Positions 42,601-64,000 of a stretch of DNA of 64,000 nucleotides are shown piece by piece. Below the pieces are notes generated by a model. That model was given only the letters and a program-made list of their open reading frames with translations. It did no database searches and was not told where the DNA came from. Position 1 is the stretch's first letter, and each line of letters starts with the position of its first letter. Position numbers and translations under genes: made by a program. The DNA comes from a virus (taxonomy: Duplodnaviria > Heunggongvirae > Uroviricota > Caudoviricetes): positions 1 through 64,000 of the IMG/VR virus record IMGVR_UViG_3300032250_000070; one strand, given 5' to 3'.

Positions 42601-45600
42601 AAGACTCCTCAAGATAAGGTAGAGTTCTTAGCACAATTGGGTATTGAGTTCCCAATGGCTGTATACAATAAGGTGAAGAACAAGAAAGCTTTCTCTGATG
42701 CTGTAAGTGGTATTAAGTTAGGTCTTAGTAAGACAGATGAGTTGATGAGCTTTGGTGGTAGAAAGCTTGGTATTCGTACACAGTTAAATGAGTTAGCTAA
42801 GTTATATACAATAGCTGCTTCTCCTGCAGAAGACAGCACGTACTTTGGTGTAGATGGTAATAGAATACAATCTGACACAGATGCAAACTATCCTTCTTTA
42901 TTAGAATACGTATTTAACTCTTCTGACACGTTAGAAGAATTGAAGCAGAACATGCCTCAGTTAAATGATGTATTCTCTACAAACAGCCAAGTGTTAAAGC
43001 TAGGTGGTAAGTTCTTTGATGAAGAAGGTAATAGAATTGCTGAGATCAAGTTACAATACATACAGGGAGTTAAGGATGTTGTAGACAATGAAGGACAATC
43101 AACATCTTCTCTAAGCATAGGTGATAGGTACATTACAGAAATGAACCAAAACCTAGATGGTAGATATTATGTATTAATCCCTGCAGATAGTTCTAGAGAG
43201 TGGATGATGGACTTAGGTAATACAATTGCCTACACAGATGTAGCTGCTGGTAATGCAGATAAGCTATTCACTGATACATTCTTAGGATACTTAAAGGATG
43301 AGATTAAGTTAGCTCAAGATAGTACTAACAGAACTAAGCTTAGAAACGTAGGAGATAAAGCTACAGAGCTTAGATTCTTAAAGGATATGCTTCCTGCTAC
43401 ATTATTAAATAAGATACAAAAGCTTATTGATAACAGAGCATCAGAAGAAAGCATTAATGATTTTATTAATACAAATCGTGAAGATTTAGATGCAGCTATA
43501 TTAAAGTCATTAGATAACACTGTTGTTAAGACTAGACAAAACTTAGTGGAGACACAAAAGGTTATTGCTAGTAAAGAAGCAGGTAGTTTCTTAATGCCTG
43601 AGTTAGAGAACAGATTCACTGAAAAGGCTGGCTTGAATAAGTTAGGTTTGGCAGATCAAGATGTTAATAATGTTATCAAGTTTGCTAATGCTAACTACAT
43701 GATTAACAACGTGGAGTTCCACAAGATCTTATTTGGTGATCCATATCAGTTTGAGGTTAAGGGCAATCAGTTAGATGAGACTAAGCGTATTAAGTCTTTC
43801 TTATCTCCAAGAAGAATCACTGTAAACTCTGATGAGTTTAACAACTTATTTAATAGTGAATACAATACAGTGGCTGGTGTTCAATTAACACCTAATGATT
43901 ATGGATATCATGAGCATAAGAACTTTGCTAAGACATTCACAGCTGCTGACGTAAATGTAACAGATAGTTTCTATCCTAAATCAAATGAAGCAGATGCTGC
44001 TTCTTGGATTATGGATGCTGCATATAAAGAGGTAAAGTTAAAGAATGGTCAATGGTCAGATGAGGCTGAAGATTGGCATCAATGGCAAATGGCTTATACA
44101 AGACAAAATGTTCCTGGCTACAAATATTCTAGTGATGCTCTTCGCAAACATGATGAAGCGTTAGTAGAACAACCTGAACCTTTATATGTTACAGATGTAT
44201 TGAAACCTATTGTATCTGGTAACAAGTTTGGTAAAGCAAACTTTGATCTAGTTTTGGATAAGTTTTCACAAATGCCTTTGTACTATAAAGCTGTAGAAGG
44301 AACTAACCTTGGCAAGTTCTATGAGAAGATGTTTAAGGAAGGTTATGACTATGCTGTAGTAGTTTCTGGTAGAAAGGTGGGTGCTGAGAAGTTACACAAA
44401 CTATATGTAGATGGTAACTTTAATGAAGAAGCATTTAACAATACAATCAATGTTGGCTGGGATACTTATGGTATCCAAGTAGAGAATAGCTATGACAAAG
44501 ATAGCAAACAAACTCTTGGTTCTCAGTTAACTAAGCTTGCCACTGTTGACTTATACAGTGATGGTAAGGCTAATAATGAAGCTGCTAGAAAAGCAGTAGA
44601 GAAGAACACTGAGGTGTTGAAAGAGATGTTACTTAATGGATATCAAGAGTTATTAAGAAAGCTTGGTATTGAAGATCTAGGTGACAACTTTGTTGTTAAA
44701 GACAAAACTGTTGTAGCTGATACATTAAGACAAGAAATGCTTAAGAGAGAAATGTCTGAGAATGGTATTGATAGTATATCTATTGATCCTGAAACTGGAG
44801 AGTTTTATATGCCATTCGAAGCATCTACAAACTACATTCAGATCAAGAACATCTTGTATTCAATTGTAGACAAGTCTATTGTATCTCCTAAGGTGAGTGG
44901 TTTCCCTGCTGTACAGGTTCCTGTAACAATGTGGGAGAAAGCTGGTGAGTCTAGAGGAGAAGGATTAAAGAAGTCTGCTCTTAAGTTCTATAGCAAAGAA
45001 GATAAATACATGGAGGTATATCTTCCTGCATGGTTCAAGAAACAATTACCTAAGGGTAAAACTGATGAAGAGTTAATTGAGTTATTAAAAGATTCAGAGA
45101 TATTAAAAGGTATAGGATTTCGTATCCCAACACAGGGCTTAAACTCTGCAGAGGTATTTAAAATCAAAGGTTTCCTACCTGAGTTTATGGGTAAGACAAT
45201 TGTGGTTCCTTCTGAGATTACTACAAAGGCTGGATCTGACTTTGACATAGATAAATTAAATCTATACTTAAAGAATATATATGTAACTCCTTCTGGTGAG
45301 ATTAAGTCTGTACCATTCTTTGGATATGGAGATCAAGCTAAAGAGGCTATCAAGAAGTTTATTCTTGAAGAAGATATCAAAGCAATGTTAGATATCAATA
45401 GTGAAATCTCTGGAAGCAGAGTGGATGACTATGGTACATTAGCAGATAAGCTTTACAAACAATCTCTTGAGAATGAATACTTTAGATCTATTGAAGAGTT
45501 ATTAACTCTACCAGAGAACTTTGATAGATTGACTTCTCCTAATACAGACAAGACTCTTAAAGAGATTGCTGATGATTTAGATACATTAAGAGGAGAGAAT

Positions 45601-47643: not shown

Positions 47644-50600
47644 TGAGTTGTCAAACAGGTATAAAAACTGCAGTTGAGAAATATGTACAGAACAAACCTT
47701 ACTTGAAATTTGATAGTAAGGACTTTATAGAAGTGAGGACATCTCCTAAAGAGAAAGTTAATCCTGAGAACTACTATGGAGTGGCACGTTCTGTAGCAGA
47801 CACTCTTAATAAAGCAATCAATTCTGAAATTGCCCTAGGAAAGGTATTCTATCCCAAAGCATATTCAGATAAGGTGGGAGTTATTATTGCTCCTACAGTG
47901 AAGCAGTTGGATGCTTTGAATGCAAAAGATGCAGCTGAGCTTGACCAAGCTTTGGCTGAATTAGATCTTGAGATACCTGAGGCTAATAGATTAGATCTTG
48001 AGAATGATACCAACTTTGGTGTTAACTCTGATGGAGATAGTCTGTTATTACAAACAGGAGAGATACCTGCTTCTAAAGCAGCACCTCAAACTGTAAGTCT
48101 TGTTAAAGATCTTTTAAATAGAATAGGTGTAGATATTAAAACACTACAAGCCATAGAGGTAGATGGTGTTAAGCAAGACGTAAATGGTGTTGCTGACATC
48201 ATGCAAAAGCTTGTAAAGGTAACTCAAGGTAAAGAAGATGTAGCTCTTACAGAAGAAGCTATGCACTTTGTTGTAGAAATTCTAGAGCAAAAGAACCCTC
48301 AGTTATTTAATAAGTTACTAGGAGAAATCAATAGCTACAAAATGTACTCTGATGTCCTAGCTACATATGGTAAGTATAAACAATATCAAACTGCTGATGG
48401 CAAACCTAACATCAGAAAGTTAAAGGTGGAGGCTATTGGTAAAATATTAGCTGAAACTATTATTAGAAAGAATGAAGGTTCTACAGAGAAGCCAGAACTA
48501 TTGGCTAGTGTAGAAGGTTGGTGGAACCAAATAGTTGACTTTATCAAAGGATTATTTGTTAAGTCTGGTTTTGACCAGGCTGCAATGATGGTACTTGGTG
48601 GTGAAGAAATTGGAAATGTTGATGATATTAGAAACACTGAGGGTGTGTATTTCCAACAAAACATTAATTCTCAACAGGCTATAATTGATAAGTTAAGATT
48701 TACTAGTGATCAGATTACAAAAGATGACACTGGCTATTTAATCAATGGTAATAGAATCAAGAGAAGAGTTACTGACTTTGTTAAGGATTGGTACAGCACA
48801 AGATTTTCTAATAAAGACTTAACTAAGTCTGAGTATGACCAAGCTGTAGATGATCTTAAGAAAGAAAAAGGTACAGCAGGACATGCTGATATTGAGCACA
48901 TGCTTAAAGACTATTTCTTAAATGAAGATGGTACATTAAGACCTGAGAATGAAAGACCTGATGACAATGGATATGTATCTCAGTTGAATCCTAAGAACAA
49001 GGATATGTATAACATTCTTAAAAGAAACATGGCAGCTCGTTTGGAAACATTCCCTGCTAACACAAAGTTTCTTGCTGAGATGACTGTATATGATGCATCA
49101 CGTGATGTAGCTGGTACTATAGACTTTATTGTTGTTACTCCTGAAGGAAAGGTGAGCATCTTAGACTGGAAGTTTATGGATCTTAATGTTCAAAGATATA
49201 AAGATGTTCCTTGGTATAAGGTTAGTGGTTGGAGACAACAAATGAAACAATACAAGTCTATTGTAGAAAAGGGATATGGTGTTAAGCCAGAAGACTTTGA
49301 ACAAACAAGAATGATTCCTATCAGAGCAATCTATTCTGGAGCTATTCCTAAAGAAGGTGTGCTACCACAATTAACAGGTGTTCAGATAGGAGATGTAGAT
49401 TTAAAGAAAGAAGAACTAGCATACTTACTACCTGTAGGATTAGAAACTGAAAAGACTAGTAGTAAGAAATTAGATACATTGATTGAGAAGCTTAATAAGA
49501 TATATGATACTATATCATCTAAGAAAGCTACTCCTGAAGAAAAGAGAAGCAAGGCTGAGTTGTTGAATTCATTGTATGAGTCTATTAGACAATTACAAAT
49601 AAGAGAAAATGTTGAACCTCTTGTTAGACAAGCTAAGTTATTAAACGCTGATGTTCAAAGAGTTATAGATACATATAATAATGAGTGGAAAGGTAAAGAG
49701 GCTGGATCATTTACAGACAAACAAAAGAGTGAACTATCTGATAGAATTCTATCTTATGAAACATCTCTAATGGTTTATACATCTTTAGCAACAGACTTAA
49801 AGAGTGTGTTTAAAAAAGATATGTCTGAGAAAGATCAAGCAATATGGCAAGATATTAGAGACACTGCAGAAAGTGCAAATGAACTTGAGGCTGATCTTGA
49901 AGAAGTAAGAAAAGACTTTGCTGAGAACGTTATTGCTAAGGATGCGAACGTTATGGACTATTTAAAACCTGAAAAGGTTATTAAAGGGTTTAGTAAGTTA
50001 TTCAACTCTACGTCTATCATTCAGCTTAAGTCTACTGAGATTTTATATAAGATGGCTAATAAAGCATTTGGTCTTGCGTCTATTGAAACATCAGAACAAG
50101 GAAATAAACTTGTAGCTATTAAAGAGAAGTATGATGTTTGGGCTAAGTCTAAAGGACTTACAAACAAAAACTACTTTGATATTATCAAGAAGAAGGGTAA
50201 GAATGAGTTGATAAATGAATATAGTCCTGAGTTCTATAAGACATTAAAGAGCAAGATTGCTGAGAAAGATACACAATGGGTTAGAGATAACATTGATGTA
50301 TCTGCTTACAATGAATTCTTAAAAGAACAGAAGGAAAAAGAATTTAAGAGAATAGAAGATAAGACTAGATTTGGTGATGAAGAGACTATAAACAAGGATA
50401 AGAAAAGAGAGATTGCTGAGACTAATGCATTATATAATACGTCAACAGCTGATTCTCCTGGTTGGTTATTATATGACCTTACTAAAAAGTTTCCTAAAAA
50501 GGAAACTTGGCAGTCTGAAGAATGGAAAGAACTTAACAAAGCAGAGAACAAACCTGCTAAAGAATTCTTTGATTATATTAGAGAAAGAAATGAATACCTA

Positions 50601-52643
50601 GATCAGATTGGTTATATTAACAAAGCTGATGCTAGAGTGTTTTTACCTTTTATAAGAAAGAGTCTTACAGAGAAGATTGTAATGGGTGGTGATTTTAGAT
50701 TGGGAGAATCCTTCCTAAGAAACATTACTATTACAGAAGGTGATGTTGGCTATGGTCAAATAGATCCTATTACTAAAGAACCAGTGTATTCTATTCCTAA
50801 ATACTTTACTAGAGAAACTGTAGAAGAAGCAAGTGAAGACTTGTTTAGAAACATGACTCTATTAAATAACATGGCTATTCGTTATGAATACCTAAGCAAT
50901 ATTGAGAACCAGTTAAACTTAATTGTAAAGACTGAAGGAAATAAGGAATCTATAAAGACATCTTACTTTGGTAAAACTAAATATAGACCTGATGGTACAC
51001 TTGAGACTACATCAGATAACTCTGACAACACTAAGCTTGTAAGAGATATGATGGCAGCTATTGTATATGGTCAGAAGTATGTAGAGAGTGAAAACTTTGA
51101 TCAGCTATTAGGAGGTATAAGTAACTTTGGTAAGAGAGCAAATAAGGTGTTAGGTAGAAAGATATTTACAGAAGACTATGATGATGCTCAGATATCTTTA
51201 AACAAGACAATCACACAGTTAAATACTGTATTCCAAATGAAGACATTAGGATTGAATCCTATCTCAGCATTATCAAACTTCTTAGGTGGTAGTTTTCAGA
51301 GTTATATTAATGCTGGTAAATTCTTTACAAAGGCAGACTTTGTACGTAATGAGTTTATGATGGCAGGTAAAATGAATGGTGTAGATTCTAAGAAATATAT
51401 AGGAGCTTTACAATACTTCCAACCTTTGACAGAAAACTATAATAGCATCCTTGCTAAAGAATTGTCTGTTAGTAAGTTTAGCCAAGAAGGAATACAAGAC
51501 TTCTTAATGATATTGATGAGAACTGGAGATCAGTATGTACAGTCTATCAACTTCTTTAGCTATCTAGAAAATTCTATTGTAGAAGATGGTAAGGTGTTTA
51601 ATGTAAGAGAATATCTTAAGAAACAGCCAGAGTTTGCTAACATGTTTACAGGCACAGCTGAACAAAGAAGTCAATTAAAAGAGAAGTTTGAATCAGAGGT
51701 AAAGAGACTAATTGAAGAGAAAGGATTTTTAAAACTAGCTAAGGTAGAAAACAATGAGCTTGTAGTGGAAGGCTTGGATAGAAAGTCTGATAGTGTGATT
51801 GAACTTAGAAGAAAGGTACAGGCTATTACTAAAGATGCATTAGGTAACCTATCTGAGGATGACCTTAGAAAGATTAACTTAAATATATATGGTAAGTCAT
51901 TCATGGTGTTCAAGAACTGGATACCAAGACTTGTAGATGTAAGATTTGGTAACCTGAAATATAACTCAGCTACAGAAGCTTATGAGTGGGGTAGAACTAG
52001 AAACATGTTTAGACTTCTGACAGAAGACTTCATGGGATCTGTTGATAGCTTAATTAGTTCTATAAAAGGAGATGACCAAAAGTTTGTCGATCAAATAAAG
52101 AAGCTTTATGAATCAAAAAGATCTGACTATGAGAAAGATACAGGTAAAGAACTAAGGATGACAGAAGGTGAGTTTGTAGAATTGGTAAGTAATAACGTAC
52201 GTAATCAAATGACAGACTTCATGTTCTATCTTGCATTGTCTACATTAATCATAGGGGCTAAAGCTGCTCAACCTGGAGATGATGATGATAGAGCCACAAA
52301 GAATAGATATAAGTATATGCTTAGAGTGATGGATAAAATACGAGATGAGGTTGCTTATTTCTACAATCCAACATCCTTCTTAGGCTTAACCACTTCAGGT
52401 ATCTTCCCAGCAATAAGTTACTTGGAAAACTTCAAGAAACTATTCCTAAACTTTGGTACAGAGATGTATGCTCTAGGTGTGGGAGATGAAGAGTTGGCAA
52501 AGAAAACTCAAGTGGTTAAATATGCATTAAAAGGATTCCCTATAGCTTCACAAGTAGATGCTGTTCTGTTAATGTTCTATCCAGACATAGCTAAAGACTT
52601 AGGTATGAAGGCACAATCTGAGGCCAAGCCATTTGGTAAATAA
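47643..52643 (+). CDS. giant 1666-aa virion/ejection-associated protein
   Basis: It is TAATG-coupled to the 3655-aa ORF. It contains a possible PD-(D/E)xK-like segment, IDFIVVTPEGKVSILDWK. Confidence 0.55.
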   Translation: MSCQTGIKTAVEKYVQNKPYLKFDSKDFIEVRTSPKEKVNPENYYGVARSVADTLNKAINSEIALGKVFYPKAYSDKVGVIIAPTVKQLDALNAKDAAELDQALAELDLEIPEANRLDLENDTNFGVNSDGDSLLLQTGEIPASKAAPQTVSLVKDLLNRIGVDIKTLQAIEVDGVKQDVNGVADIMQKLVKVTQGKEDVALTEEAMHFVVEILEQKNPQLFNKLLGEINSYKMYSDVLATYGKYKQYQTADGKPNIRKLKVEAIGKILAETIIRKNEGSTEKPELLASVEGWWNQIVDFIKGLFVKSGFDQAAMMVLGGEEIGNVDDIRNTEGVYFQQNINSQQAIIDKLRFTSDQITKDDTGYLINGNRIKRRVTDFVKDWYSTRFSNKDLTKSEYDQAVDDLKKEKGTAGHADIEHMLKDYFLNEDGTLRPENERPDDNGYVSQLNPKNKDMYNILKRNMAARLETFPANTKFLAEMTVYDASRDVAGTIDFIVVTPEGKVSILDWKFMDLNVQRYKDVPWYKVSGWRQQMKQYKSIVEKGYGVKPEDFEQTRMIPIRAIYSGAIPKEGVLPQLTGVQIGDVDLKKEELAYLLPVGLETEKTSSKKLDTLIEKLNKIYDTISSKKATPEEKRSKAELLNSLYESIRQLQIRENVEPLVRQAKLLNADVQRVIDTYNNEWKGKEAGSFTDKQKSELSDRILSYETSLMVYTSLATDLKSVFKKDMSEKDQAIWQDIRDTAESANELEADLEEVRKDFAENVIAKDANVMDYLKPEKVIKGFSKLFNSTSIIQLKSTEILYKMANKAFGLASIETSEQGNKLVAIKEKYDVWAKSKGLTNKNYFDIIKKKGKNELINEYSPEFYKTLKSKIAEKDTQWVRDNIDVSAYNEFLKEQKEKEFKRIEDKTRFGDEETINKDKKREIAETNALYNTSTADSPGWLLYDLTKKFPKKETWQSEEWKELNKAENKPAKEFFDYIRERNEYLDQIGYINKADARVFLPFIRKSLTEKIVMGGDFRLGESFLRNITITEGDVGYGQIDPITKEPVYSIPKYFTRETVEEASEDLFRNMTLLNNMAIRYEYLSNIENQLNLIVKTEGNKESIKTSYFGKTKYRPDGTLETTSDNSDNTKLVRDMMAAIVYGQKYVESENFDQLLGGISNFGKRANKVLGRKIFTEDYDDAQISLNKTITQLNTVFQMKTLGLNPISALSNFLGGSFQSYINAGKFFTKADFVRNEFMMAGKMNGVDSKKYIGALQYFQPLTENYNSILAKELSVSKFSQEGIQDFLMILMRTGDQYVQSINFFSYLENSIVEDGKVFNVREYLKKQPEFANMFTGTAEQRSQLKEKFESEVKRLIEEKGFLKLAKVENNELVVEGLDRKSDSVIELRRKVQAITKDALGNLSEDDLRKINLNIYGKSFMVFKNWIPRLVDVRFGNLKYNSATEAYEWGRTRNMFRLLTEDFMGSVDSLISSIKGDDQKFVDQIKKLYESKRSDYEKDTGKELRMTEGEFVELVSNNVRNQMTDFMFYLALSTLIIGAKAAQPGDDDDRATKNRYKYMLRVMDKIRDEVAYFYNPTSFLGLTTSGIFPAISYLENFKKLFLNFGTEMYALGVGDEELAKKTQVVKYALKGFPIASQVDAVLLMFYPDIAKDLGMKAQSEAKPFGK

Positions 52644-52662: not shown

Positions 52663-55600
52663 ATGGAAATTAGTTGTTCTAGTAAAGTTTGTCCAGTAAT
52701 ATTAGATTCTTCCTGCGTATTTTATGAAGGTCCTAATTTAATATATACAGGAATTAACACTAATGATAATCTTGAAACAGCTTTAGAAAAAATTGATGCT
52801 AAGTTTGGAGATGCCAACGTAGGATACATATTTAATAATGGTGTGTTTCAATCAACCCCTGGTGCACCTGTTGGACTAGGTGGTAGCATGGCAGCTAATA
52901 CAATCATTGTTGATAGTGGATATACATTAACCTATACAGGTGATTTCTATGCAGCGAAACATATAACGCTTGGAGGAACATCTTCAGATTTTGTAAAAGG
53001 AGATGGTTCTTTAGATTCAACATCATATCAACCAACTGGTAATTATATAACTAATTTAACAGGTGATGTAACAGCTAACGGACCAGGTTCTGTAACTGCT
53101 ACATTAGCAACAGTATTTGGTGCACCTGGTACATATGGTGATTCAGGAAATGTTCCTAGAATTACAGTGGATGGTAAGGGTAGAGTTACAAATGTAACCC
53201 CTGTAGCAATTAACTATCCATCTCAATCATTAAGTTTTGTAGGAGATGTAACTGGATTAGGATATACAGGATCTCCTGTAACACTAACCTTAGATACAGT
53301 TAATTCTGATGTATACGGAAGTGATACCTTCCTTAAATTTGCTGTGAATGGTAAAGGATTAGTTACATCAGCTGCTCCTATTACAAGTCTAGATATTGAC
53401 TCTGTACTAGGATATACTCCTGTTCCTACAACTAGGACAATAGATATAAATGGTGTAACACAAAACTTGGCATCTAATAGAAGTTGGTCTGTAGGAACTG
53501 TAACAAGTGTAGGGGTAACAATGCCTTCTGCATTTAGCGTAGGACCTCCTGTTACATCAAGTGGAAATATTGCCATCACAGCAATTGGTTCAACCTCTCA
53601 ATATATAAGAGGAGATGGTAGTCTTGGTAATGTTATAGGTGGTACATCAGGTACTAGTGGTATCAATGGTTCTTCAGGAATCAATGGTACAAGTGGACTT
53701 TCAGGAACCAATGGAACAAGTGGATTTAGTGGTACGAACGGATTAACTGGAACTAGTGGAATATCAGGCACATCTGGTACTAATGGAGCTAATGGAACAC
53801 GTGGAACTTCTGGATCTAGTGGTGTAGATGGAAGTTCAGGCACATCAGGAAGTGATGGTTCTAACGGAACATCTGGAATAAATGGTATAGATGGTTCTTC
53901 AGGTACTGCAGGTACTTCAGGTCAAGATGCAACAGCTGGTACATCAGGAACAAATGGCACCTCAGGAACATCAGCTTCTTCAGGTACAGTTGGTTCTAGT
54001 GGTACGTCTGGATCTTCTGGTTTATCTGGTACAAATGGCACATCTGGTACTACTGGTACCTCTGGTACAAGTGGAACAAATGGCACTTCTGGAACTTCAG
54101 GTTCTAGTGGAAATAGTGGAACATCTGGTACTAATGGAACAAGTGGAACAGTTGGAACCTCTGGAACTAATGGAACCTCAGCATCATCTGGATCTTCAGG
54201 TGCTAATGGAAGGTCAACTGAGTTGTTTCCATACAATGCTAGAACAACTGCTACATCAGGAGACCCTGGTGTTACAAATATAATTTGGAACAATGCTATT
54301 CAAATCTCAGCAACTCAAATTGGTATATCACACTTAGATAGCGATGGTGTTGATGTTGATGTATTTTTATCATTGATACCTACAGGAACAATGGTAATTA
54401 TACAAGATAGAACTAATAGTACTAATTATCAAAAATGGACTTTTGGAGCAGGAGTGGAAGTAGCACCAAATACATATTGGGAATTCCCAGCAACATATGT
54501 TGATGGTGGTTATTCTTTCTCAGATGGTCAAGATGTATTATTAATAGTAGCACAAACACCTTCAGGTACAAGTGGTACAAGTGGTATAAATGGCACAAGT
54601 GGTGTCTCTGGAACAAGTGGAAGCTCAGGAGTATCAGGAACTAATGGTGTATCTGGATCTTCAGGAACCACTGGTTCTTCTGGAACCTCAGGAGTAAGTG
54701 GTACAACAGGAACCTCTGCTAGCAGTGGGTCTAGTGGAACAACAGGTACTAGTGGAACGAATGGTGTCTCAGGAACAGCAGGTACTAGTGGTACTAATGG
54801 AACTTCTGCTACTAGTGGTATAAATGGTACGTCAGGAACAACAGGTACAAGCGGTACTAATGGAACAAGTGGTACCAATGGTACATCAGGAACAAATGGT
54901 ATTGATGGTTCTTCAGGATCAAGCGGTGCATCTGGAACACGTGGTACATCTGGCACCAATGGAACTTCAGGAACTAGTGGTACAACTGGAACTTCAGGTA
55001 CTTCTGCTTTATCAGGAACTAATGGAACCTCTGCATCTTCTGGTACATCTGGTACTAATGGAACTACTGGTACATCTGGCATTAGTGGTACAAATGGCAC
55101 CACTGGTACAAGTGGAACTAATGGAGCTAATGGTACATCAGGAGTGAGTGGCACATCTGGAACCAATGGCACCTCTGGAGTTGATGGATTAAATGGAACA
55201 TCAGGAACAAATGGAACTAGTGGTGTTGATGGAGCTAATGGAACCTCTGGGACCAATGGTACAAGTGGTACATCTGTATCTGTATCTGGTACTACTAATG
55301 ATATAGTTAAGTTTACAAGTGCATCCACTATAGGTGATAGTAATATAACAGATACAGGAACTTTAGTTACTATTGACTCAACCCATCGTTTTAATGGATT
55401 AGGAACTGTTCAAGGAACAACTGCTTCAGACACTGCACCATTGGGAGCAGAGTTAGCAGCAGTGACAGCTTCAGGTACTAACTGGACATTAGCAGGAACT
55501 AACTTAAACGTAGGTGGATACACGCACACCACTGGTTCTACAGCTAACTTAGTAAGTACATTAGCAGCAGTTATTGGAACGTATTACCAAGTGGTTTGGA

Positions 55601-56679
55601 CCATTACAGGAAGAACTACTGGTTCTGTTACTATAAATTATGGTGGTGCATCTACTGGAGCAAACATAGTTGCTTCAGGAACAACTGGTCCTTTGGCTAC
55701 AGCCACTGCTGTATTGACTGTTATTCCAACGACAGACTTTAATGGTACTGTAGCAATCAGTGTTAAGACCATTGGACTATCAAGTGCTTCTATTACTTAT
55801 TTAGATAGTGTAGGAACTATTAGAAATGAATTTAGAATTAATGATCTAAGTAATTTCTCTTTTGGAGTAGGGGCAGGTAGAAGAACTACAACAGCAACAA
55901 ATAATACAGCAGTTGGTGTAAGTGCATTACAAAATAACACAACAGGATCAAATAATGTAGCAATTGGTGCAAGTGCAATGCCTTTTAATAATACAGCATC
56001 TAACAATATAGCAATTGGTCAAAATGCATTGTTTAATAATACAACAGGAGCACCTAATATAGCAATTGGTACATCTGCATTGTCTGCTAGTGTAGGAGCA
56101 TCTAATAATGTAGCAATTGGACAGAGTGCATTGAGTCCTACTACAACCAATGGTAACACAGCAGTTGGTTCATTTGCAATGAGTGCTAATACAATAGGAA
56201 CATTTAATACAGCGATGGGTCAACTTGTAATGTCAACTGCTACAACAGGATCTAATAACATAGCTATGGGAAGAGAGGCTGGTCGTTACATAGCAAATAA
56301 AACTGGAGCAGTGGTTTTAGTAAACAATAGTGTATTTCTTGGATGGAGAACGTCTCCATTAGGAGATAACCAAACTAACCAAATTGTTATAGGATATGAC
56401 TCAATAGGACTAGGTTCTAACACAACTGTCTTAGGTAACACATCCACTACATTAACTGCTTTATACGGTGCTGTGATAACAGGAGGAACAGCTACTGATG
56501 CTTCTGCACAATTGCAAGCAGACTCTACAACTAAAGGTTTCTTACCTCCACGTATGACTTCTGCACAAAGAACAGCTATTGCATCTCCTGCAACAGGATT
56601 GATGGTTTATCAAACAGATGGTACAGAAGGTCTATATGTGAAAACATCAACAGTTTGGAGATTATTAACAATGACTTAA
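52663..56679 (+). CDS. collagen-like tail fiber (1338 aa) with two G-X-Y arrays, Hep_Hag/YadA-head-like NxAIG repeats and conserved C-terminal FLPPRMTSAQRTAIASP...YQTDG motif
   Basis: G-X-Y arrays at about 53640-54215 and 54570-55275. Repeats NNTAVGVSALQNNTTGSNNVAIGASAM...NNIAIGQNAL... at about 55860-56300. The N-terminus (Y.GPNL.YTGINT.DNL..ALEKID) is shared with the 15914 fiber. Confidence 0.8.
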   Translation: MEISCSSKVCPVILDSSCVFYEGPNLIYTGINTNDNLETALEKIDAKFGDANVGYIFNNGVFQSTPGAPVGLGGSMAANTIIVDSGYTLTYTGDFYAAKHITLGGTSSDFVKGDGSLDSTSYQPTGNYITNLTGDVTANGPGSVTATLATVFGAPGTYGDSGNVPRITVDGKGRVTNVTPVAINYPSQSLSFVGDVTGLGYTGSPVTLTLDTVNSDVYGSDTFLKFAVNGKGLVTSAAPITSLDIDSVLGYTPVPTTRTIDINGVTQNLASNRSWSVGTVTSVGVTMPSAFSVGPPVTSSGNIAITAIGSTSQYIRGDGSLGNVIGGTSGTSGINGSSGINGTSGLSGTNGTSGFSGTNGLTGTSGISGTSGTNGANGTRGTSGSSGVDGSSGTSGSDGSNGTSGINGIDGSSGTAGTSGQDATAGTSGTNGTSGTSASSGTVGSSGTSGSSGLSGTNGTSGTTGTSGTSGTNGTSGTSGSSGNSGTSGTNGTSGTVGTSGTNGTSASSGSSGANGRSTELFPYNARTTATSGDPGVTNIIWNNAIQISATQIGISHLDSDGVDVDVFLSLIPTGTMVIIQDRTNSTNYQKWTFGAGVEVAPNTYWEFPATYVDGGYSFSDGQDVLLIVAQTPSGTSGTSGINGTSGVSGTSGSSGVSGTNGVSGSSGTTGSSGTSGVSGTTGTSASSGSSGTTGTSGTNGVSGTAGTSGTNGTSATSGINGTSGTTGTSGTNGTSGTNGTSGTNGIDGSSGSSGASGTRGTSGTNGTSGTSGTTGTSGTSALSGTNGTSASSGTSGTNGTTGTSGISGTNGTTGTSGTNGANGTSGVSGTSGTNGTSGVDGLNGTSGTNGTSGVDGANGTSGTNGTSGTSVSVSGTTNDIVKFTSASTIGDSNITDTGTLVTIDSTHRFNGLGTVQGTTASDTAPLGAELAAVTASGTNWTLAGTNLNVGGYTHTTGSTANLVSTLAAVIGTYYQVVWTITGRTTGSVTINYGGASTGANIVASGTTGPLATATAVLTVIPTTDFNGTVAISVKTIGLSSASITYLDSVGTIRNEFRINDLSNFSFGVGAGRRTTTATNNTAVGVSALQNNTTGSNNVAIGASAMPFNNTASNNIAIGQNALFNNTTGAPNIAIGTSALSASVGASNNVAIGQSALSPTTTNGNTAVGSFAMSANTIGTFNTAMGQLVMSTATTGSNNIAMGREAGRYIANKTGAVVLVNNSVFLGWRTSPLGDNQTNQIVIGYDSIGLGSNTTVLGNTSTTLTALYGAVITGGTATDASAQLQADSTTKGFLPPRMTSAQRTAIASPATGLMVYQTDGTEGLYVKTSTVWRLLTMT

Positions 56680-56975: not shown

Positions 56976-57842
56976 ATGAACATAATATTTCAAATTAATG
57001 GCGGTATTGGCAAGGTGATTGCTGGTACTGCCATTTGTGCTTCTATAAAGGCACAATACCCTGACGCTAAACTTATTGTTGTCTCTGGTTATCCAGATGT
57101 ATTCTTAGGTAATAAGAATGTGGACAGAGCTTATGCTTTTGGTCAACAAGCTTATTTCTATAAGGAATACATTGAGAATCAAGAGATTATGGTGTTTGGA
57201 CATGATCCATATTTAGATGCAAAACACATTAAGCAAGAAGAACACCTGATTGAAACATGGTGTAGAATCTATGATTTACCAGTGACAAAGACTGTTGGAG
57301 AACTATTCCTTACGCAAAGGGAAATAGATTTCTTCTCTAAGAAGTTTGTATCTGATAAGCCTATTTTTTTGATGCAAACTAATGGTGGTGCTGAAGCAGA
57401 CCAAAAGTATTCATGGGCTAGAGATATTCCTAGCTATGTAGTGGAGAATGTTATACATGAGTTCAAAGAACAATATAACATAGTACACATCAGAAGAGAT
57501 GATCAATTGCAATATGAAGGAACATTTGGTGTATCTGATACATTCAGAGCTCTTGTTGTGCTTATGAATCTTAGTGAGAAAAGATTGTTGATGGATAGCT
57601 TTGGTGAACATGCTGCAGCTGCTCTTAATAAACCTTCTACAGTGTTATGGATTGCTAATAGCCCTAAGGTGTTTGGTTATGACTTACATACAAACATTGT
57701 AGCTAAACCAGAAACAGTTGTTCCTGAATTACGCAATGCTTATTTAGGTAAATATAACATTGGAGGAGACCCTGTTGAGTTTCCTTACAACAATGAGTCT
57801 GAAATATTTGATGTAGACGCTGTAATTAAATCTTTTAAATAA
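56976..57842 (+). CDS. GT9-like (heptosyltransferase-family) glycosyltransferase
   Basis: A C-terminal region resembles the GT9 donor-binding segment ...ND(S)GpmHlAaAlg.P.v.lfG: LVVLMNLSEKRLLMDSFGEHAAAALNKPSTVLWIANSP. There is also a Rossmann-like N-terminus. Confidence 0.5.
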   Translation: MNIIFQINGGIGKVIAGTAICASIKAQYPDAKLIVVSGYPDVFLGNKNVDRAYAFGQQAYFYKEYIENQEIMVFGHDPYLDAKHIKQEEHLIETWCRIYDLPVTKTVGELFLTQREIDFFSKKFVSDKPIFLMQTNGGAEADQKYSWARDIPSYVVENVIHEFKEQYNIVHIRRDDQLQYEGTFGVSDTFRALVVLMNLSEKRLLMDSFGEHAAAALNKPSTVLWIANSPKVFGYDLHTNIVAKPETVVPELRNAYLGKYNIGGDPVEFPYNNESEIFDVDAVIKSFK

Positions 57843-57848
57843 CCCAAC

Positions 57849-58670
57849 ATGGAAAAAATATTCTATCAAAGCTCTTTACCTAGAGCAGGTTCTACATTAT
57901 TACAAAACATATTAGCTCAGAATCCTGATATATATGCTACACCTACAAGTGGTGTTCTTGAATTAGTGTTTGGAGCACGTGCAAATTATACTAATAGTGC
58001 AGAGTTCAAAGCACAAGATGCTGAACTTATGAAGAAGGGATGGCAAGCTTTTGCAAAGAATGGTATGGATGGTTTCTACAATGCTATTACAGATAAGAAA
58101 TATGTTATTGATAAAAGCAGAGGTTGGGGCATACACTATGACTTCTTACAGTTTGTACAAGGTGGTGAGCCTAAGGTTATATGTATGGTGAGAGACCTAC
58201 GTGATATCTTTGCTTCTATGGAAGGTAACTTTAGAAAGCATCCTGAGAAGCAATCTGACATATTAGATTGGTCAAAGGGACAAGGAACCACTACACCTAA
58301 GCGTATTGATATCTGGGCTCAAGGTCCTCCTGTAGGACTAGCTATTGAAAGACTTAGTGAGATATTTAGAACTGGTGTAAATAGTAAAATGTTATTTGTT
58401 AAGTTTGAAGACTTGTGTTTATATCCAGAAAGAGAAATGGCTAAGATATATCACTACTTAGATATTCCTTACTTTGAACATGACTTTGATAACATTGAGC
58501 AAGTGACCAAGGAAGATGATGAAATCTATGGTGCATTTGGTGACCATGTTATTCGTACAAAGCTTGAGCCTGTAAGAAGTAGAGCTAAAGAATTATTAGG
58601 TAAGGATGTTAGTGATTGGATCTATACAAATTACAAATGGTTCTTTGACCAATTTAGATATACTAAGTAA
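57849..58670 (+). CDS. PAPS-dependent sulfotransferase
   Basis: An N-terminal 5'-PSB-like loop SLPRAGSTLLQNIL (compare PRSGSTLL). The downstream sequence MVRDLRDIFASM resembles the 3'-PB RDPRD region. Confidence 0.7.
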   Translation: MEKIFYQSSLPRAGSTLLQNILAQNPDIYATPTSGVLELVFGARANYTNSAEFKAQDAELMKKGWQAFAKNGMDGFYNAITDKKYVIDKSRGWGIHYDFLQFVQGGEPKVICMVRDLRDIFASMEGNFRKHPEKQSDILDWSKGQGTTTPKRIDIWAQGPPVGLAIERLSEIFRTGVNSKMLFVKFEDLCLYPEREMAKIYHYLDIPYFEHDFDNIEQVTKEDDEIYGAFGDHVIRTKLEPVRSRAKELLGKDVSDWIYTNYKWFFDQFRYTK

Positions 58671-59464
58671 TGAAAACTAAGTTTGATATAAACATATACA
58701 AAATACAAAAGAAAGATTTTGTTAATGCGTTTCACAGCAATACATTAAAGTATGCATTGTTCCCTAATGATAATGCTGTAACAAGTTCTATTATACAGGG
58801 ATGGCAGTATGAGAAGTATATGTTTGACTTCTTGAATAGAAATCAGATAGATTGTGAGGGTAAAACAATACTTGACATTGGTGCTAACAATGGTTCCTTT
58901 GCTATAGACTTTGCCCATTTAGTTGGAGACAACGGAATGGTACATAGCTTTGAACCTCAGAGACTAGTGTATTATCAACTATGTGGTAATGTGTTTATGA
59001 ATGGATTGGATAATGTATATTGTTATAACAATGCTATTGGTAGCTGTGTAGACAGTGTATATATAGAATCTCCAAATTACTTTGATAAAGGAGCTGTTAA
59101 CTTTGGTAATGTCAAAGTTAGTACAGAAGGAGAAAGAGTTGTACAGGTTCCTTTGGATTCTTTCACCTTTGACAATGTTGTATTCATTAAAATTGATGTA
59201 CAAGGATATGAGTTAAATGTAATCAAGGGAGCTGTAAATACTATTGCTAAAAATAGACCTTATCTATTTGTAGAGTTTGAAGAAGACTTGTTAATAGAAG
59301 CTAAGACTAGTGAAAAGGAATTACAAAAAGAAATAGAAGACTTAGGATATATAGTTAAGAGGTTTCAAGAAGGCATACCATATCAAACAACCAGTGGTAA
59401 GTGTCTAGACTGTGTATGTATACCTAAAGAAAAGTTTGAAGAATTTAATCACATTATACCATGA
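58670..59464 (+). CDS. FkbM-family SAM-dependent methyltransferase
   Basis: ILDIGANNGSFAIDFA...GMVHSFEPQRLVYYQLCGNVFMNGLDNV...NNAIG is the FkbM_methyltransferase signature (D[IV]GAN.G...EP.P). Confidence 0.8.
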   Translation: MKTKFDINIYKIQKKDFVNAFHSNTLKYALFPNDNAVTSSIIQGWQYEKYMFDFLNRNQIDCEGKTILDIGANNGSFAIDFAHLVGDNGMVHSFEPQRLVYYQLCGNVFMNGLDNVYCYNNAIGSCVDSVYIESPNYFDKGAVNFGNVKVSTEGERVVQVPLDSFTFDNVVFIKIDVQGYELNVIKGAVNTIAKNRPYLFVEFEEDLLIEAKTSEKELQKEIEDLGYIVKRFQEGIPYQTTSGKCLDCVCIPKEKFEEFNHIIP

Positions 59465-59910
59465 TAACAGTATTATTTGGACAGCCTCATTCAGGCAAGA
59501 CAACTCTATCTCATGAGTTAGAAAGTTGGACATTAGATGGAGACAAGCTTAGGGCTGTGTTCCAGGACAAAGATTTCTCTAGAGAAGGACGTATTAAAAA
59601 CCTAAATAGAGCTAGTGACATTGCTGTGTTTATGCATTCAATATACAAGAATATCTCAATAGCTATGGTCTATCCATATAAAGAAGCTAGAGATTATTTA
59701 AACAACCTGTGTACTAAGCTAGGAGTAGAGATTGTATGGGTACACTTATATTATTCTGAACAAAGAGGTAGAGAAGCTTTTCATGTACAAGATTTTGAAT
59801 TAGATCTTTTAGAAGAAAATGTTCTATCTTTGAACACTTCAATGTATTCAATAGAAGAATGTATTGCTCAAATTAAAAACTATACAAATGAATATTCTAG
59901 CAAAAGGTAA
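59461..59910 (+). CDS. cysC: adenylylsulfate (APS) kinase
   Basis: P-loop VLFGQPHSGKTTLSHELE. LDGDKLRAVFQDKDFSREGRIKNLNRASDIAVFM aligns with the CysC LDGDNVRHGLN.DLGFS..DR.ENIRRIGEVAKLF block. Confidence 0.85.
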   Translation: MITVLFGQPHSGKTTLSHELESWTLDGDKLRAVFQDKDFSREGRIKNLNRASDIAVFMHSIYKNISIAMVYPYKEARDYLNNLCTKLGVEIVWVHLYYSEQRGREAFHVQDFELDLLEENVLSLNTSMYSIEECIAQIKNYTNEYSSKR

Positions 59911-60271
59911 TGGTAATGGAAGTGGACATGCAATGTTTATTGGTAGATGGCAGCCATGGCACAAAGGTCATAGATGGTTAATAGACCAAGCATTAAATGA
60001 AGGAAAGAATGTACTCCTATGTATAAGAGATGTCACTCCTGATGAAAAGAATCCATGGTCTCCTATTGAGGTGATGATGAATCTAACAGAAGAATTAATG
60101 GATCTTATTGAGAAAGGAAGAGTTAAACTCATGATTATACCTGATATTGAATCTATCAATATTGGTAGAGGTATAGGATATGATGTTATAGAACACACAC
60201 CTCCACAAGATATACATGACATCTCAGCAACTAAGATTAGAGAACAAATGAAAGCAGAAGGTAAGTTATGA
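59888..60271 (+). CDS. minimal HIGH-motif nucleotidyltransferase, NadM/NMNAT-like (cytidylyltransferase superfamily)
   Basis: FIGRWQPWHKGH compares with GRFQPFHKGH. A C-terminal ISATKIREQM compares with YSGTEIRRRM of archaeal NadM. The start is uncertain: in-frame ATGs at 59864, 59888 and 59933. Confidence 0.65.
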   Translation: MNILAKGNGNGSGHAMFIGRWQPWHKGHRWLIDQALNEGKNVLLCIRDVTPDEKNPWSPIEVMMNLTEELMDLIEKGRVKLMIIPDIESINIGRGIGYDVIEHTPPQDIHDISATKIREQMKAEGKL

Positions 60272-60477
60272 TAGTAGAAAAGAAAAGACACTTAGCTAAG
60301 ACAATAAGCTATAGAGTGTTAAGCACAGCAATAGGCTTTGGAATTATGTGGGCTATCAGTGGGTCTATAAAGGTGGGTGCTGCCTTTGGTGTAGCTGAAC
60401 TAGTTTACAAACCAATTCAATACTACATCCATGAGCGTATATGGTATAAGTGGATTAAGTATGGATTAAAGAAGTAA
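60268..60477 (+). CDS. DUF2061-like small membrane protein
   Basis: 69 aa. AKTISYRVLSTAIGFGIMWAI...YYIHERIWYKW fits the DUF2061 pattern (KT..WR..T...........HER.W), a family often found with or fused to APS kinase. Confidence 0.55.
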   Translation: MIVEKKRHLAKTISYRVLSTAIGFGIMWAISGSIKVGAAFGVAELVYKPIQYYIHERIWYKWIKYGLKK

Positions 60478-61531: not shown

Positions 61532-62531
61532 ATGCGTTTATATATAATTGTTTTGTTCTTTCTGATGTATATCCTTCATTAATCTTTAGTACATTCTGGT
61601 AGTACTTCTTTAATATCTTAGCCACTTCAAACCAACTTCTACTCTCACGTACAGCCATCATCTCTTGTCTCCTTTTATCATAGCTTAGAAGAGTCTCGAC
61701 TATACCTTTTGTAACTGTCTCTGTACTAATACTTGGAATCACCCACATACCATCCATGTGCCTAGAGCCTTTGTAAGTTCCTACAATAGGAAGAGCACTG
61801 GCTGTAGCTTCCATAAGTGTTAGGTTTGGATGACCAGCTTCTAAGAAAGAAGGATGTAAGAATATTGTATGTGATTGATATAGATCTCTCATCTCTTCAT
61901 CTGTAGGATTTGTTAACTTTAAAGTTAACTTTGGATAGTCTAATAAGTCTTTATGGTGTTCAAAGAACTTATTGTTATCAGGATGACCAGCTACTGTAAT
62001 AGGTAGATCTAACTCCTTAGCTGCTTCAATACCATATCTAAATCCTTTTCTATCTATACTACTATTTCCTGCTAATCCATTATTAGCTATCATTAATAAC
62101 TTGTGGTTCTTAGGACTATGATCTGGTGTAAAGAAATCTGTGTTAGCCCCATGTGATAAATAGAATAACTTATCAGTAGTATCAAAGTAATTTATATAAT
62201 GCTCAGTGTGAGTCAATGAAATAATACTTCCTTTAATAGCTTCTAGGTTTTGTTTAAACACCCAGCTATCTTTACCATACCACTCAACATGGTGATCATG
62301 TAGAGAGTAGATGTAAGGAATACCAAGATCTCTACAGTGAATAGCCTGGTTAGCTAAGTGAGTATGTACAATTGTATCTGGCCATTTCTCTAGCTCATTC
62401 ATATATTTGATGTCAACTTGGACATCTAACTTTTCTAAGTTTTGTTTATACTCCCATATAAGTCTTTCTACAGCTCCCCATCCATTTGGTGGTATGGTTA
62501 TTAACCCTGTAGCTACGTGTACTATTCTCAT
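61518..62531 (-). CDS. GT4-family (GT-B) glycosyltransferase
   Basis: It has the EX7E-type motif HPSFLEAGHPNLTLMEATASALPIVGT. The N-terminus, MRIVHVATGLITIPPNGWGAVERLI, is typical of GT4. Confidence 0.75.
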   Translation of the reverse strand: MRIVHVATGLITIPPNGWGAVERLIWEYKQNLEKLDVQVDIKYMNELEKWPDTIVHTHLANQAIHCRDLGIPYIYSLHDHHVEWYGKDSWVFKQNLEAIKGSIISLTHTEHYINYFDTTDKLFYLSHGANTDFFTPDHSPKNHKLLMIANNGLAGNSSIDRKGFRYGIEAAKELDLPITVAGHPDNNKFFEHHKDLLDYPKLTLKLTNPTDEEMRDLYQSHTIFLHPSFLEAGHPNLTLMEATASALPIVGTYKGSRHMDGMWVIPSISTETVTKGIVETLLSYDKRRQEMMAVRESRSWFEVAKILKKYYQNVLKINEGYTSERTKQLYINAYDNL

Positions 62532-64000
62532 TTTCTAAATGTTTTATGTGTATTATCAATTAAGGAGAACCCATCTGCTTGGGTAGTAAGTCTGTTATGT
62601 ACAATCCCCATAGGATGCCCCATAAAGATATTATTAAAATACATATCAGCTGCATCCCACTTGTGCAATCTAAGCACATCTTTTAACCATGGAGCAGTCT
62701 TAATAGGGAACATAATACATTGTAAACCAATAATGTGGTCTGTAACATACATTGTTTCATTGACTTCTTGCCTTACAGGAGACTGAGGCCAGCCCTGTTC
62801 TAAGGTGTCTTTATCTCCAAAGGACATGATGTCTATGTTGTTTGGTCCCAATAAGTGTGCACATTCCTCAACTTTTTGTACGAAAAAGTGTATGTCTGTC
62901 TCAATGATACAATCCCCTTCACATACAATCAGATAGTCACAGTCATGGAATTCCATTAGGATGGCATTCTTGAATGCTTCGTAGCATCCATAATGTGCTG
63001 GGGTAAGTGCAGTACCATGCTGTTGAACTTGCTGTTCATTGAAGAGTTCCATTGAAACGCATAGTGGTCGCATACAGTTGTGAGCTGGTGGTAAAGACTT
63101 ATAGGGCTCGTTAGTGTGTAGGATATATTCCCACCCATGGTCTGCCACTTGTTCAAGGGATGCTCTACTTGCTTGTTCTCTTTCATCATTTAATGTAGTT
63201 TGTATGTGAACTAATTTTATTCTTGGTCTATCTGTTTTCTTCCACATAAACTTACCTGTATTTTCGTACAGGTGTAATGTATCTTTATCTAAGTAAAACT
63301 CTTCCACCTTATAAGAAAGATCTCCATCATAGAAATCTAGTCTCACTGTAATAGGTTTTCCTTTGAATTCAAACTGATAAACCCATTCATGTGACTGTGA
63401 AGGAATTATTCTCTTTGACATATCTTCTCCAACACTTACGTATATCTTTCTATTGTCTCTATTATATGTAAAGAAATAGAACACATAAGTGTTTGGTTTT
63501 CCAACAACAGGAATGATAGAATAATACTCACTATTAGATGCTACACCTAATCCACTGTGAACCAGGAAGGTATCCTTGTCATTAGTAACTAATTGTATAT
63601 CATTAGGATTGAAGCTAAAGATAACCTTTGATAAGTAGTCTTCTAGATAGTTCTCACATCCTCTTCTCTTACACACGTCATTCCACTGCTCTGGTGTACG
63701 TACATCATCAAACTCCTTTAGGAAGAAGTCTGTGTCAAACATAATACCATTGGTCTGAATTCCCTTACCCTGAGGTGTAGGGAGTGTAGCAGCATACAAC
63801 TTCTTATCTGTTCTAAATGCTTCATTCACTGCAGGTATATCTCTAGGATCTAATGTAACATCATATGTAGTGTAGAAGAATCTCTTGAATCCAAGTTCTC
63901 TAGCAACCTTAGCTGCGTTATATATGTTAGTTAAGACAGTGAGAGATTGGTTACTACTCTTCAGTCCATTGATGTTGATCTCAGCAAAGTAGTCTGGTCT
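62528..64000 (-). CDS. putative glycosyltransferase / polysaccharide-modifying enzyme, 5'-truncated by window end
   Basis: The reading frame remains open to nt 64000 upstream of the GTG chosen by the ORF track (manual translation ...RPDYFAEININGLKSSNQSLTVLTNIYNAAKVARELGFKRFFYTTYDVTLDPRDIPAVNEAF...). The C-terminal half has a GT-A-like acidic segment, FHDCDYLIVCEGDCII. Confidence 0.4.
   Translation of the reverse strand, partial: RPDYFAEININGLKSSNQSLTVLTNIYNAAKVARELGFKRFFYTTYDVTLDPRDIPAVNEAFRTDKKLYAATLPTPQGKGIQTNGIMFDTDFFLKEFDDVRTPEQWNDVCKRRGCENYLEDYLSKVIFSFNPNDIQLVTNDKDTFLVHSGLGVASNSEYYSIIPVVGKPNTYVFYFFTYNRDNRKIYVSVGEDMSKRIIPSQSHEWVYQFEFKGKPITVRLDFYDGDLSYKVEEFYLDKDTLHLYENTGKFMWKKTDRPRIKLVHIQTTLNDEREQASRASLEQVADHGWEYILHTNEPYKSLPPAHNCMRPLCVSMELFNEQQVQQHGTALTPAHYGCYEAFKNAILMEFHDCDYLIVCEGDCIIETDIHFFVQKVEECAHLLGPNNIDIMSFGDKDTLEQGWPQSPVRQEVNETMYVTDHIIGLQCIMFPIKTAPWLKDVLRLHKWDAADMYFNNIFMGHPMGIVHNRLTTQADGFSLIDNTHKTFRK

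Follow-up and report, generated by a model that had tools for sequence, protein, structure and literature searches.

Overview of the mini nucleotidyltransferase locus

The sequence analysed here, from now on referred to as the window, comprises 64,000 nucleotides (nt) of tailed-phage DNA (IMG/VR record IMGVR_UViG_3300032250_000070) and encodes close to its right end a mini nucleotidyltransferase (NT), located directly between a short gene related to adenosine 5'-phosphosulfate (APS) kinase and a gene for a small DUF2061 membrane protein. In the open reading frame (ORF) listing, NT spans 59864..60271 on the plus strand, beginning with a TTG codon and encoding 135 amino acids (aa). Its true start is most likely the ATG at 59888, resulting in a 127 aa protein, because nearly all of the 120 closest NT homologues are 127-128 aa long and the N-terminal motif M.N(I/V)L.K is kept in distant relatives, even in a GC-rich one (P0141). 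Alternatively, translation may begin at ATG 59933, yielding 112 aa. All residue numbers refer to the 127 aa version. A chance ORF can be dismissed based on more than 7500 homologues and a confident AlphaFold2 model (predicted local distance difference test score, pLDDT, 90.6); NT is a genuine gene. The features of NT, including those that distinguish it from nicotinamide mononucleotide adenylyltransferase (NMNAT), and those of the surrounding operon, which encodes a presumed consumer of 3'-phosphoadenosine 5'-phosphosulfate (PAPS), are as follows.

59888..60271, plus strand: mini nucleotidyltransferase NT, candidate ATP sulfurylase, 127 aa; alternative starts TTG 59864 (135 aa) and ATG 59933 (112 aa)
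NT residues 17-28, plus strand: FIGRWQPWHKGH, read directly from the sequence
59942..59971, plus strand, residues 19-28: GRWQPWHKGH, the HxGH nucleotide-binding signature and core of FIGRWQPWHKGH
60023..60031, plus strand, residues 46-48: I-R-D, containing the family-specific Arg47-Asp48 pair, located where the archaeal NMNAT 'IGSAQ' motif has Gly38-Ser39
60164..60181, plus strand, residues 93-98: GRGIGY, a family-specific loop standing in part for a 33-residue NMNAT segment
60221..60241, plus strand, residues 112-118: ISATKIR, the second nucleotidyltransferase signature by sequence
56976..57842, plus strand: first operon gene, 288 aa, no Pfam or PADLOC match; a 288 aa ORF occupies the same position in the related phage-like contig L005
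57849..58670, plus strand: sulfotransferase, 273 aa, presumed PAPS consumer (Pfam Sulfotransfer_3 2.1e-15, Sulfotransfer_1 1.7e-9)
58670..59464, plus strand: FkbM-type methyltransferase, 264 aa, between sulfotransferase and kinase (Pfam Methyltransf_21 9.5e-18)
59461..59910, plus strand: APS-kinase-like gene, short and lid-less, 149 aa (Pfam APS_kinase 6.9e-8); the NT start lies within its 3' end
60268..60477, plus strand: DUF2061 small membrane protein, 69 aa (Pfam DUF2061 9.7e-17); its ATG overlaps the NT TGA (ATGA)

Phage structural genes are found elsewhere in the window, specifically a large terminase (2523-4565), a portal (4565-7147) and a major head protein (9116-10669). At the right end, six genes on the plus strand follow one another with abutting or overlapping ends and converge on minus-strand glycosyltransferase genes of families 9 (GT9, heptosyltransferase-like) and 1 (GT1). 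The methyltransferase gene shares overlapping start and stop codons with both of its neighbours, and the overlap of NT with the 3' end of the kinase gene, already noticed in the original prediction, amounts to 23 nt when counted from ATG 59888 and 47 nt when counted from the TTG start. The order sulfotransferase, (methyltransferase), kinase, NT and DUF2061 is maintained in two related phage contigs (L003 and L005). The window kinase retains the P-loop as well as the LDGDxLR, DFSxxGRxxNxxR and PY..AR motifs, and its APS-binding motifs are thereby preserved. Short lid-less kinases of 147-149 aa are also encoded in related phage contigs, in one fusion (P0129) and in gp32 of Xylella phage Salvo.

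The NT family and its relation to NMN adenylyltransferases

The first homologue search with NT returned 7550 proteins, and 1078 clusters were matched at E <= 0.001 when 1.84 billion 50%-identity representatives were searched. Profile searching puts the family at no fewer than 8000 proteins, and at least 564 relatives were confirmed when a single genome of each species was scanned. Members are currently named 'cytidyltransferase-like', 'nicotinamide mononucleotide adenylyltransferase' or 'phosphopantetheine adenylyltransferase', with fusions named 'adenylyl-sulfate kinase', and none of 240 listed proteins carries a sulfate adenylyltransferase name. No description of an NMNAT-like or otherwise novel ATP sulfurylase was found in the literature, with subscription journals lying outside the coverage of the search. 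One 192 aa ORF (P0149, on an ENA contig of 1463 nt) contains the NT domain in tandem as two matched stretches, which may reflect either misassembly or a true duplication within the ORF.

NT scores above the cut-offs of both PF01467 (CTP_transf_like; 27.8 bits vs 21) and TIGR00125 (32.7 bits vs 27.7) and displays a Rossmann-like fold with HxGH following strand 1 and an ISxT-type motif preceding the last helix. It belongs to the HIGH-motif nucleotidyltransferase superfamily, where archaeal NMNAT is its nearest neighbour, and lies outside the curated NMNAT and Sat families. The GRxQPxHxGH and SxTxIR motifs reported in the original prediction are both confirmed, being directly readable as GRWQPWHKGH and ISATKIR. 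In an alignment of 69 diverse members, residues G19, R20, H25, H28, G93, G97 and R118 are invariant, and Q22, G27, R47, P56, D86, R94, V96, Y98, I112, S113 and T115 are at least 90% conserved; R47 is invariant in one family set (A1) and conserved at 90% or more in another (A2). A fold search of viral structures in BFVD with NT returned nothing at E <= 0.001. The fold by itself leaves the substrate undecided.

NMNAT models lead the NCBIfam match list of NT, yet remain below cut-off (35.8 vs 127 and 29.4 vs 181.2 bits), with the match confined to profile positions 2-82, the N-terminal half, as is also the case in cellular members. Measured against the archaeal/NadM-type NMNAT models TIGR01527 and NF002243, the NT family reaches 23-28% and the window NT 16-28% of the cut-offs. 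The GRxQPxHxGH and SxTxxR signatures are shared with archaeal NMNATs (GRWQPWHKGH and SATKIR in NT) and conserved in the NT family. However, the family profile aligns only to residues 4-76 and 110-137 of Methanocaldococcus jannaschii MJ0541 NMNAT (PDB ID: 1f9a), and the 33 residues in between (77-109) are replaced by 8 (profile positions 82-89) that include the start of the conserved GRxVGY loop. The missing segment presumably contains the nicotinamide-contacting helix and the Trp stacking on the nicotinamide ring. In a pairwise alignment with the Methanothermobacter thermautotrophicus enzyme (PDB ID: 1ej2), Gly38-Ser39 corresponds to Arg47-Asp48 of NT. As judged from these alignments, the ATP-side signatures are intact and the acceptor side appears rebuilt, with two arginines gained. 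NT is shorter than known NMNATs, as originally noted (127 aa compared with 168-181 aa for archaeal NMNATs in the PDB). It does not fall below the size class of the smallest HIGH-motif transferases, the glycerol-3-phosphate cytidylyltransferase chains 1coz and 2b7l having 129-132 aa. Finally, in contrast to archaeal/NadM NMNATs, the genomic partners of NT are sulfur-activation genes and never NAD genes.

NT is linked to APS kinase in phages and metagenomes

Genome neighborhoods were surveyed at 313 loci, covering 6-10 kb on each side of NT: the 80 best genome loci, 154 viral loci (76 from close relatives and 78 from a broader profile) and 79 metagenome loci. Genuine APS kinases are found fused or adjacent to NT, as in a PAPS-synthase-like module. 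Among the best 150 50%-identity representatives, 34 are fusions with APS kinase, 24 in the order kinase-NT and 10 in the order NT-kinase. The kinase halves of these fusions are canonical, with Pfam E-values down to 9.5e-69 over the full profile, and two of them exceed the NCBIfam apsK equivalog-domain cut-off (182.6 and 257 bits vs 138.7). The original prediction had suggested examining co-occurrence with cysC in other phages, and an APS kinase is indeed adjacent or fused in 147 of the 154 viral loci (74/76 close-relative and 73/78 broader-profile loci), with NT located at a contig end in both close-relative exceptions. A similar picture is seen in metagenomes, where 68 of the 79 loci encode the kinase and four a sulfite reductase and APS reductase (Sir-CysH) instead, NT being at or near a contig end in the remaining seven.

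A sulfotransferase is encoded within 6 kb of NT in 62/154 viral loci. CysD, CysN, CysH and ORFs with Sat motifs were all absent from the viral loci, where both Sat motifs were required within one ORF. More generally, regular-expression searches for the Sat motifs RNPxHxxH or GRD[HP]AG returned no ORF in the 80 genome, 154 viral and 79 metagenome loci, and CysDN was encountered in a single genomic place, represented by two loci on the same contig (L006/L009).

Specifically in phages, DUF2061 joins the kinase-NT pair as a third partner. It is encoded within 1.5 kb of NT in 106/154 viral loci, where it comes after NT, in 39/79 metagenome loci and in only 1/80 cellular genome loci, the latter (L075) being phage-derived in appearance. 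In one phage contig a kinase-NT fusion is followed by DUF2061. Searching for homologues of DUF2061 yielded close relatives of about 70 aa only, none of them a fusion, and the literature on the domain was uninformative; a role in sulfate entry would be pure speculation.

One otherwise collinear phage-like contig carries a cassette inserted between kinase and NT (L005:5114-8650; RFPH01000002.1, labelled as a 'Cytophagia bacterium' metagenome-assembled genome (MAG), probably a binning artefact). The cassette encodes a cupin, a second CTP_transf_like protein (133 aa), a PfkB kinase and an RmlD-like epimerase and resembles a heptose-nucleotide pathway.

Cellular NT systems and partner switching

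Among the 80 best genome loci, 14 encode NT fused to APS kinase and another 21 have the two side by side, resulting in 35 kinase-linked loci from at least seven phyla, including Acidobacteriota, several Bacteroidota families, Marinimicrobia, Omnitrophota, Planctomycetota, a Nomurabacteria genome, and marine group III (MGIII) and other archaea. Sulfotransferases are encoded near NT in Marinimicrobia (Sulfotransfer_5, 3e-51), Pyrinomonadaceae, Omnitrophota and an Acidobacteriota polysaccharide cluster. Cultured haloarchaea, including Halostagnicola, Natrinema, Haladaptatus and others, encode a sulfotransferase, a kinase-NT fusion and a YqcI/YcgG protein in this order on megaplasmids. Examples are L333:7011-10121 (Halostagnicola larsenii XH-48 plasmid NZ_CP007057.1) and L334:7018-10120 (Natrinema zhouii), where the fusion is annotated only as cysC.

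A different arrangement was found in two Nitrospiraceae genomes and four metagenome contigs (L024, L025 and L253-L256), in which an Rrf2 regulator, a sulfite reductase, an APS reductase and NT follow one another and no kinase is present. The APS reductase is of the thioredoxin-dependent type (TIGR02055, 271.9 bits vs 235.3), and the sulfite reductase contains NIR_SIR and TusA domains. NTs 78-85% identical to the one in this operon are encoded directly after a full-length APS kinase (apsK, 284.9 bits), with a CysQ 3'-phosphoadenosine 5'-phosphate (PAP) phosphatase (TIGR01331, 255.9 bits vs 228.8) and a polysaccharide flippase nearby. To these two NTs, the APS-reductase-paired and the kinase-paired one, the window NT shows identities of 56% and 54%. 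One orthologous NT is thus paired with either APS reductase or APS kinase, whose common substrate is APS; an ATP sulfurylase would be expected at this operon position. This partner switching is the most telling result for NT acting as a sulfurylase.

Several further observations were made in these cellular systems. The Nitrospiraceae-type sulfite reductase (L024:6179-11487, and likewise in L025 and L253-L256) carries extra C-terminal HEPN and TusA domains, and the gene directly 3' of NT in the same six loci encodes a TrpD-like member of glycosyl transferase family 3 (351 aa). The PAPS_reduct gene of an Acidobacteriota contig (L006), grouped with Nitrospiraceae CysH by BLAST single-linkage clustering, was rejected as a CysH candidate, as NCBIfam identifies it as CysD with CysN adjoining. 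One NT family member continues into a fused stretch that matches DHHA1 weakly (7.4e-5, under the Pfam cut-off); PAP phosphatase activity is proven for a DHH/DHHA1 enzyme of Methanothermococcus (PMC10322725). In marine Bacteroidota single-amplified genomes and MAGs (L012-L022 and L057) as well as in an MGIII archaeon (L071), the kinase-NT pair adjoins genes read by eye as S-adenosylmethionine synthetase-like, adenosylhomocysteinase-like and, in some cases, methionine synthase-like. The same neighbours in the archaeon hint at lateral transfer of the block.

Proposed function and alternative explanations

We hypothesize that NT is a non-canonical minimal ATP sulfurylase producing APS, which would provide the phage with a two-step PAPS pathway for its sulfotransferase, and based on genomic context assign this proposal a probability of roughly two in three. 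NT, with its core of about 112 residues, would have descended from the archaeal/NadM-type NMNAT lineage, and its acceptor pocket would have been rebuilt, with Arg47-Asp48 taking the place of Gly-Ser after strand 2 and a short loop including the start of GRxVGY that of the 33-residue segment after strand 4. R47 and R94 may have roles in the reaction, which would convert ATP and sulfate to APS and pyrophosphate. The short APS kinase encoded by the overlapping upstream gene would then phosphorylate APS to PAPS, and the sulfotransferase encoded two genes farther upstream would spend PAPS, probably on a glycan made by the neighbouring methyl- and glycosyltransferases. A stripped-down adenylyltransferase feeding APS to the adjacent kinase is what the original prediction had envisaged, and among the explanations considered it is best supported by the comparative genomic and structural results, specifically the linkage to cysC, the occurrence of fusions in both orders and the kinase-free APS reductase operon. 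The lack of Sat-motif ORFs and the confinement of CysDN to one place among the 313 loci can be read as a displacement signature.

Somewhat less firmly, we consider it probable that the family as a whole constitutes a third, hitherto unrecognised class of ATP sulfurylase, the smallest known, derived from an NMNAT-like ancestor and serving to activate sulfate in thousands of phages and in many marine and hypersaline lineages. These would include Dadabacteria, Marinimicrobia, marine Bacteroidota, MGIII archaea, haloarchaeal megaplasmids and some Nitrospiraceae. In phages, APS kinase, NT and DUF2061 would together form a portable module able to make PAPS independently of the host.

A number of observations weigh against the sulfurylase proposal. 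NMNATs, not ATP sulfurylases, are closest to NT in both sequence and structure. NT stays under the PF01747 ATP-sulfurylase cut-off (17.6 bits vs 24.3, E 0.0026, profile positions 29-91 only), as do the fused NT relatives scanned. The motifs QxRNP and GRDHAG are absent from NT, which has GRWQPWHKGH and GRGIGY instead; QxRNPxHxxH and GRDHAG are the Sat-type motifs. The 'RDxKGLYKKAR..FTGI' lid of canonical APS kinases is deleted in the window kinase, so that even the second step, from APS to PAPS, is something we infer. A few short phage contigs, such as P0255 and P0191, encode NT and no kinase in the available sequence. Approximately 43 of the 80 best genome loci, from Dadabacteria or 'Thermodesulfobacteriota' and essentially one lineage, have housekeeping neighbours only, as read by eye, and are uninformative. 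The absence of canonical sulfurylases holds for the 6-10 kb covered on each side of NT. In the Acidobacteriota contig L006, canonical CysD (344 bits vs 195, NCBIfam) and CysN (344.3 vs 336.1) are encoded beside an NT-kinase fusion, and NT would therefore be redundant there; this case fits a non-redundant role of NT equally well. Duplicate sulfate-activation systems do exist, for example NodPQ alongside CysDN in rhizobia. Biochemical evidence for any NT family member was not found in the literature searched.

The alternative that survives best, though we regard it as unlikely, is that NT is active in the PAPS pathway on an acceptor other than sulfate, which could be another oxyanion, a small phospho-compound with an adenylylated product that is subsequently 3'-phosphorylated by APS kinase, or APS or PAPS itself. 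Linkage data establish an association with the pathway, not a substrate, and both the lack of Sat sulfate-site motifs in NT and the presence of CysDN beside the L006 fusion would suit such a role. However, neither the kinase-free operon of sulfite reductase, APS reductase and NT nor the absence of canonical ATP sulfurylase genes from all loci but one would be explained, and we know of no metabolite or pathway of this kind.

It is improbable that NT is instead a sugar-phosphate or glycerol-phosphate nucleotidyltransferase similar to TagD or RfaE domain II, providing an activated sugar to the glycosyltransferases encoded nearby. The size of NT, which matches that of the 129-132 aa TagD chains, and the GT9 (heptosyltransferase-like) and GT1 genes flanking the window operon are consistent with this function, which had been raised as an alternative in the form of sugar-phosphate adenylylation. 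Yet related loci encode a separate CTP_transf_like paralogue for this purpose, accompanied in L005 by a PfkB kinase and an epimerase and located between APS kinase and NT in marine Bacteroidota loci (cluster c46), while the mini-NT in both settings remains beside the kinase or DUF2061. The fusions, the CysH operon and CysQ link NT to APS kinase and not to glycosyltransferases, and similarity to TagD is marginal (PDB match, E 0.08-0.24).

A non-catalytic or regulatory partner of the kinase, for instance an APS- or PAPS-binding domain that stabilises or regulates a lid-less enzyme, would be the reverse of the regulatory APS-kinase-like domain in fungal ATP sulfurylase. The missing lid and the overlap of the kinase and NT genes agree with such an analogy, as would the co-occurrence with CysDN in L006. 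It is made highly improbable by the invariance of the catalytic signature residues H25, H28, R20 and R118 over diverse representatives, by the occurrence of kinase-free NTs in the CysH operon and stand-alone in Dadabacteria, and by fusions of NT to full-length, lid-bearing kinases.

The other early alternative, that NT is a trimmed but true NMNAT serving NAD+ salvage during infection with the P-loop kinase acting as a nicotinamide riboside kinase as in NadR, has very little probability, as the partner is APS-kinase-like and not nicotinamide-riboside-kinase-like, which also argues against a CoA-synthase-like reading of the kinase-transferase pair. The original prediction had regarded clear matches to bona fide NMNATs alone, combined with no linkage to cysC, as speaking against APS synthesis. 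NMNATs are indeed the top matches, but their scores lie far under the cut-offs, a 33-residue segment is deleted and the linkage to cysC is near universal.

Surroundings of the operon

Immediately upstream of the sulfation and glycosylation operon, the plus strand carries four very large ORFs at 22904-28423, 36676-47643, 47643-52643 and 52663-56679, encoding proteins of 1839, 3655, 1666 and 1338 aa, respectively. Presumably tail or fibre proteins, they could be what the glycan-modifying genes act upon. Within the glycan cluster, two conserved ORFs, 56976-57842 on the plus strand (288 aa) and 62528-63829 on the minus strand (433 aa), are without a Pfam match. Compared at the DNA level with 50,697 phage records, the operon matched none of them, so no cultured close relative supplies context. 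PADLOC returned no match for NT, the kinase, DUF2061 or the 288 aa ORF, and the module is therefore not a known defence system. Promoter and terminator scans gave chance-level results, and the GC content of the module resembles that of its surroundings.

Implications and comparison with known sulfate-activation systems

Sulfate activation is the entry point for all sulfate assimilation and sulfation. To our knowledge, Sat and CysDN are the only recognised types of ATP sulfurylase, and metabolic reconstructions look for these alone. If the NT family does represent a third type, genomes and phages scored as being without ATP sulfurylase would be competent, at least 8000 database proteins would need re-annotation, and engineered PAPS regeneration would gain a useful component in a sulfurylase of about 115-130 aa. 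Because the kinase-NT fusion occurs in cultured haloarchaea, which offer ready experimental material, the claim can be tested directly. Phage 'cysC' auxiliary genes are currently interpreted as a boost to host assimilation (PMC10914622); under the sulfurylase proposal they would instead belong to a self-sufficient PAPS synthase supplying phage sulfotransferases.

NT differs from known ATP sulfurylases in size, domain composition and ancestry. The homo-oligomeric Sat/MET3-type enzymes (PF01747; PDB IDs: 1r6x, 1v47 and 2gks) possess a PUA-like N-terminal domain that NT lacks, NT is about one third of their size, and its sequence is nearer to NMNAT than to Sat. The GTP-coupled CysD/CysN sulfurylase has the same predicted product, APS, and occupies the same operon position. 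However, CysD is a PP-loop ATP pyrophosphatase with a fold unrelated to that of NT, NT has no GTPase partner, and just one of the examined loci contains both systems.

An annotated phage counterpart is PHROG 10255 ('kinase', 230 positions), which corresponds to the kinase-NT fusion form of the window gene pair, the window kinase matching positions 5-62 and NT positions 134-229. Its members include gp32 of Xylella phage Salvo and AAY80_227 of Stenotrophomonas phage DLP_6, which are only about 30-34% identical, are labelled 'kinase' or 'adenylylsulfate kinase' and lie amid DNA-metabolism genes with no annotated sulfotransferase near. A few genes upstream of its fusion, Salvo encodes gp24 (L001:1381-2076), annotated as a cysteine dioxygenase and thus a further gene of sulfur metabolism in a phage for which no sulfotransferase is annotated.

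Bifunctional PAPS synthases, such as human PAPSS1 (PDB ID: 1x6v) and the Aquifex SAT/APS kinase (PDB ID: 2gks), contain a Sat half where the systems described here have an NMNAT-like mini-domain. The window encodes its two components as separate overlapping genes, with a kinase that lacks the lid.

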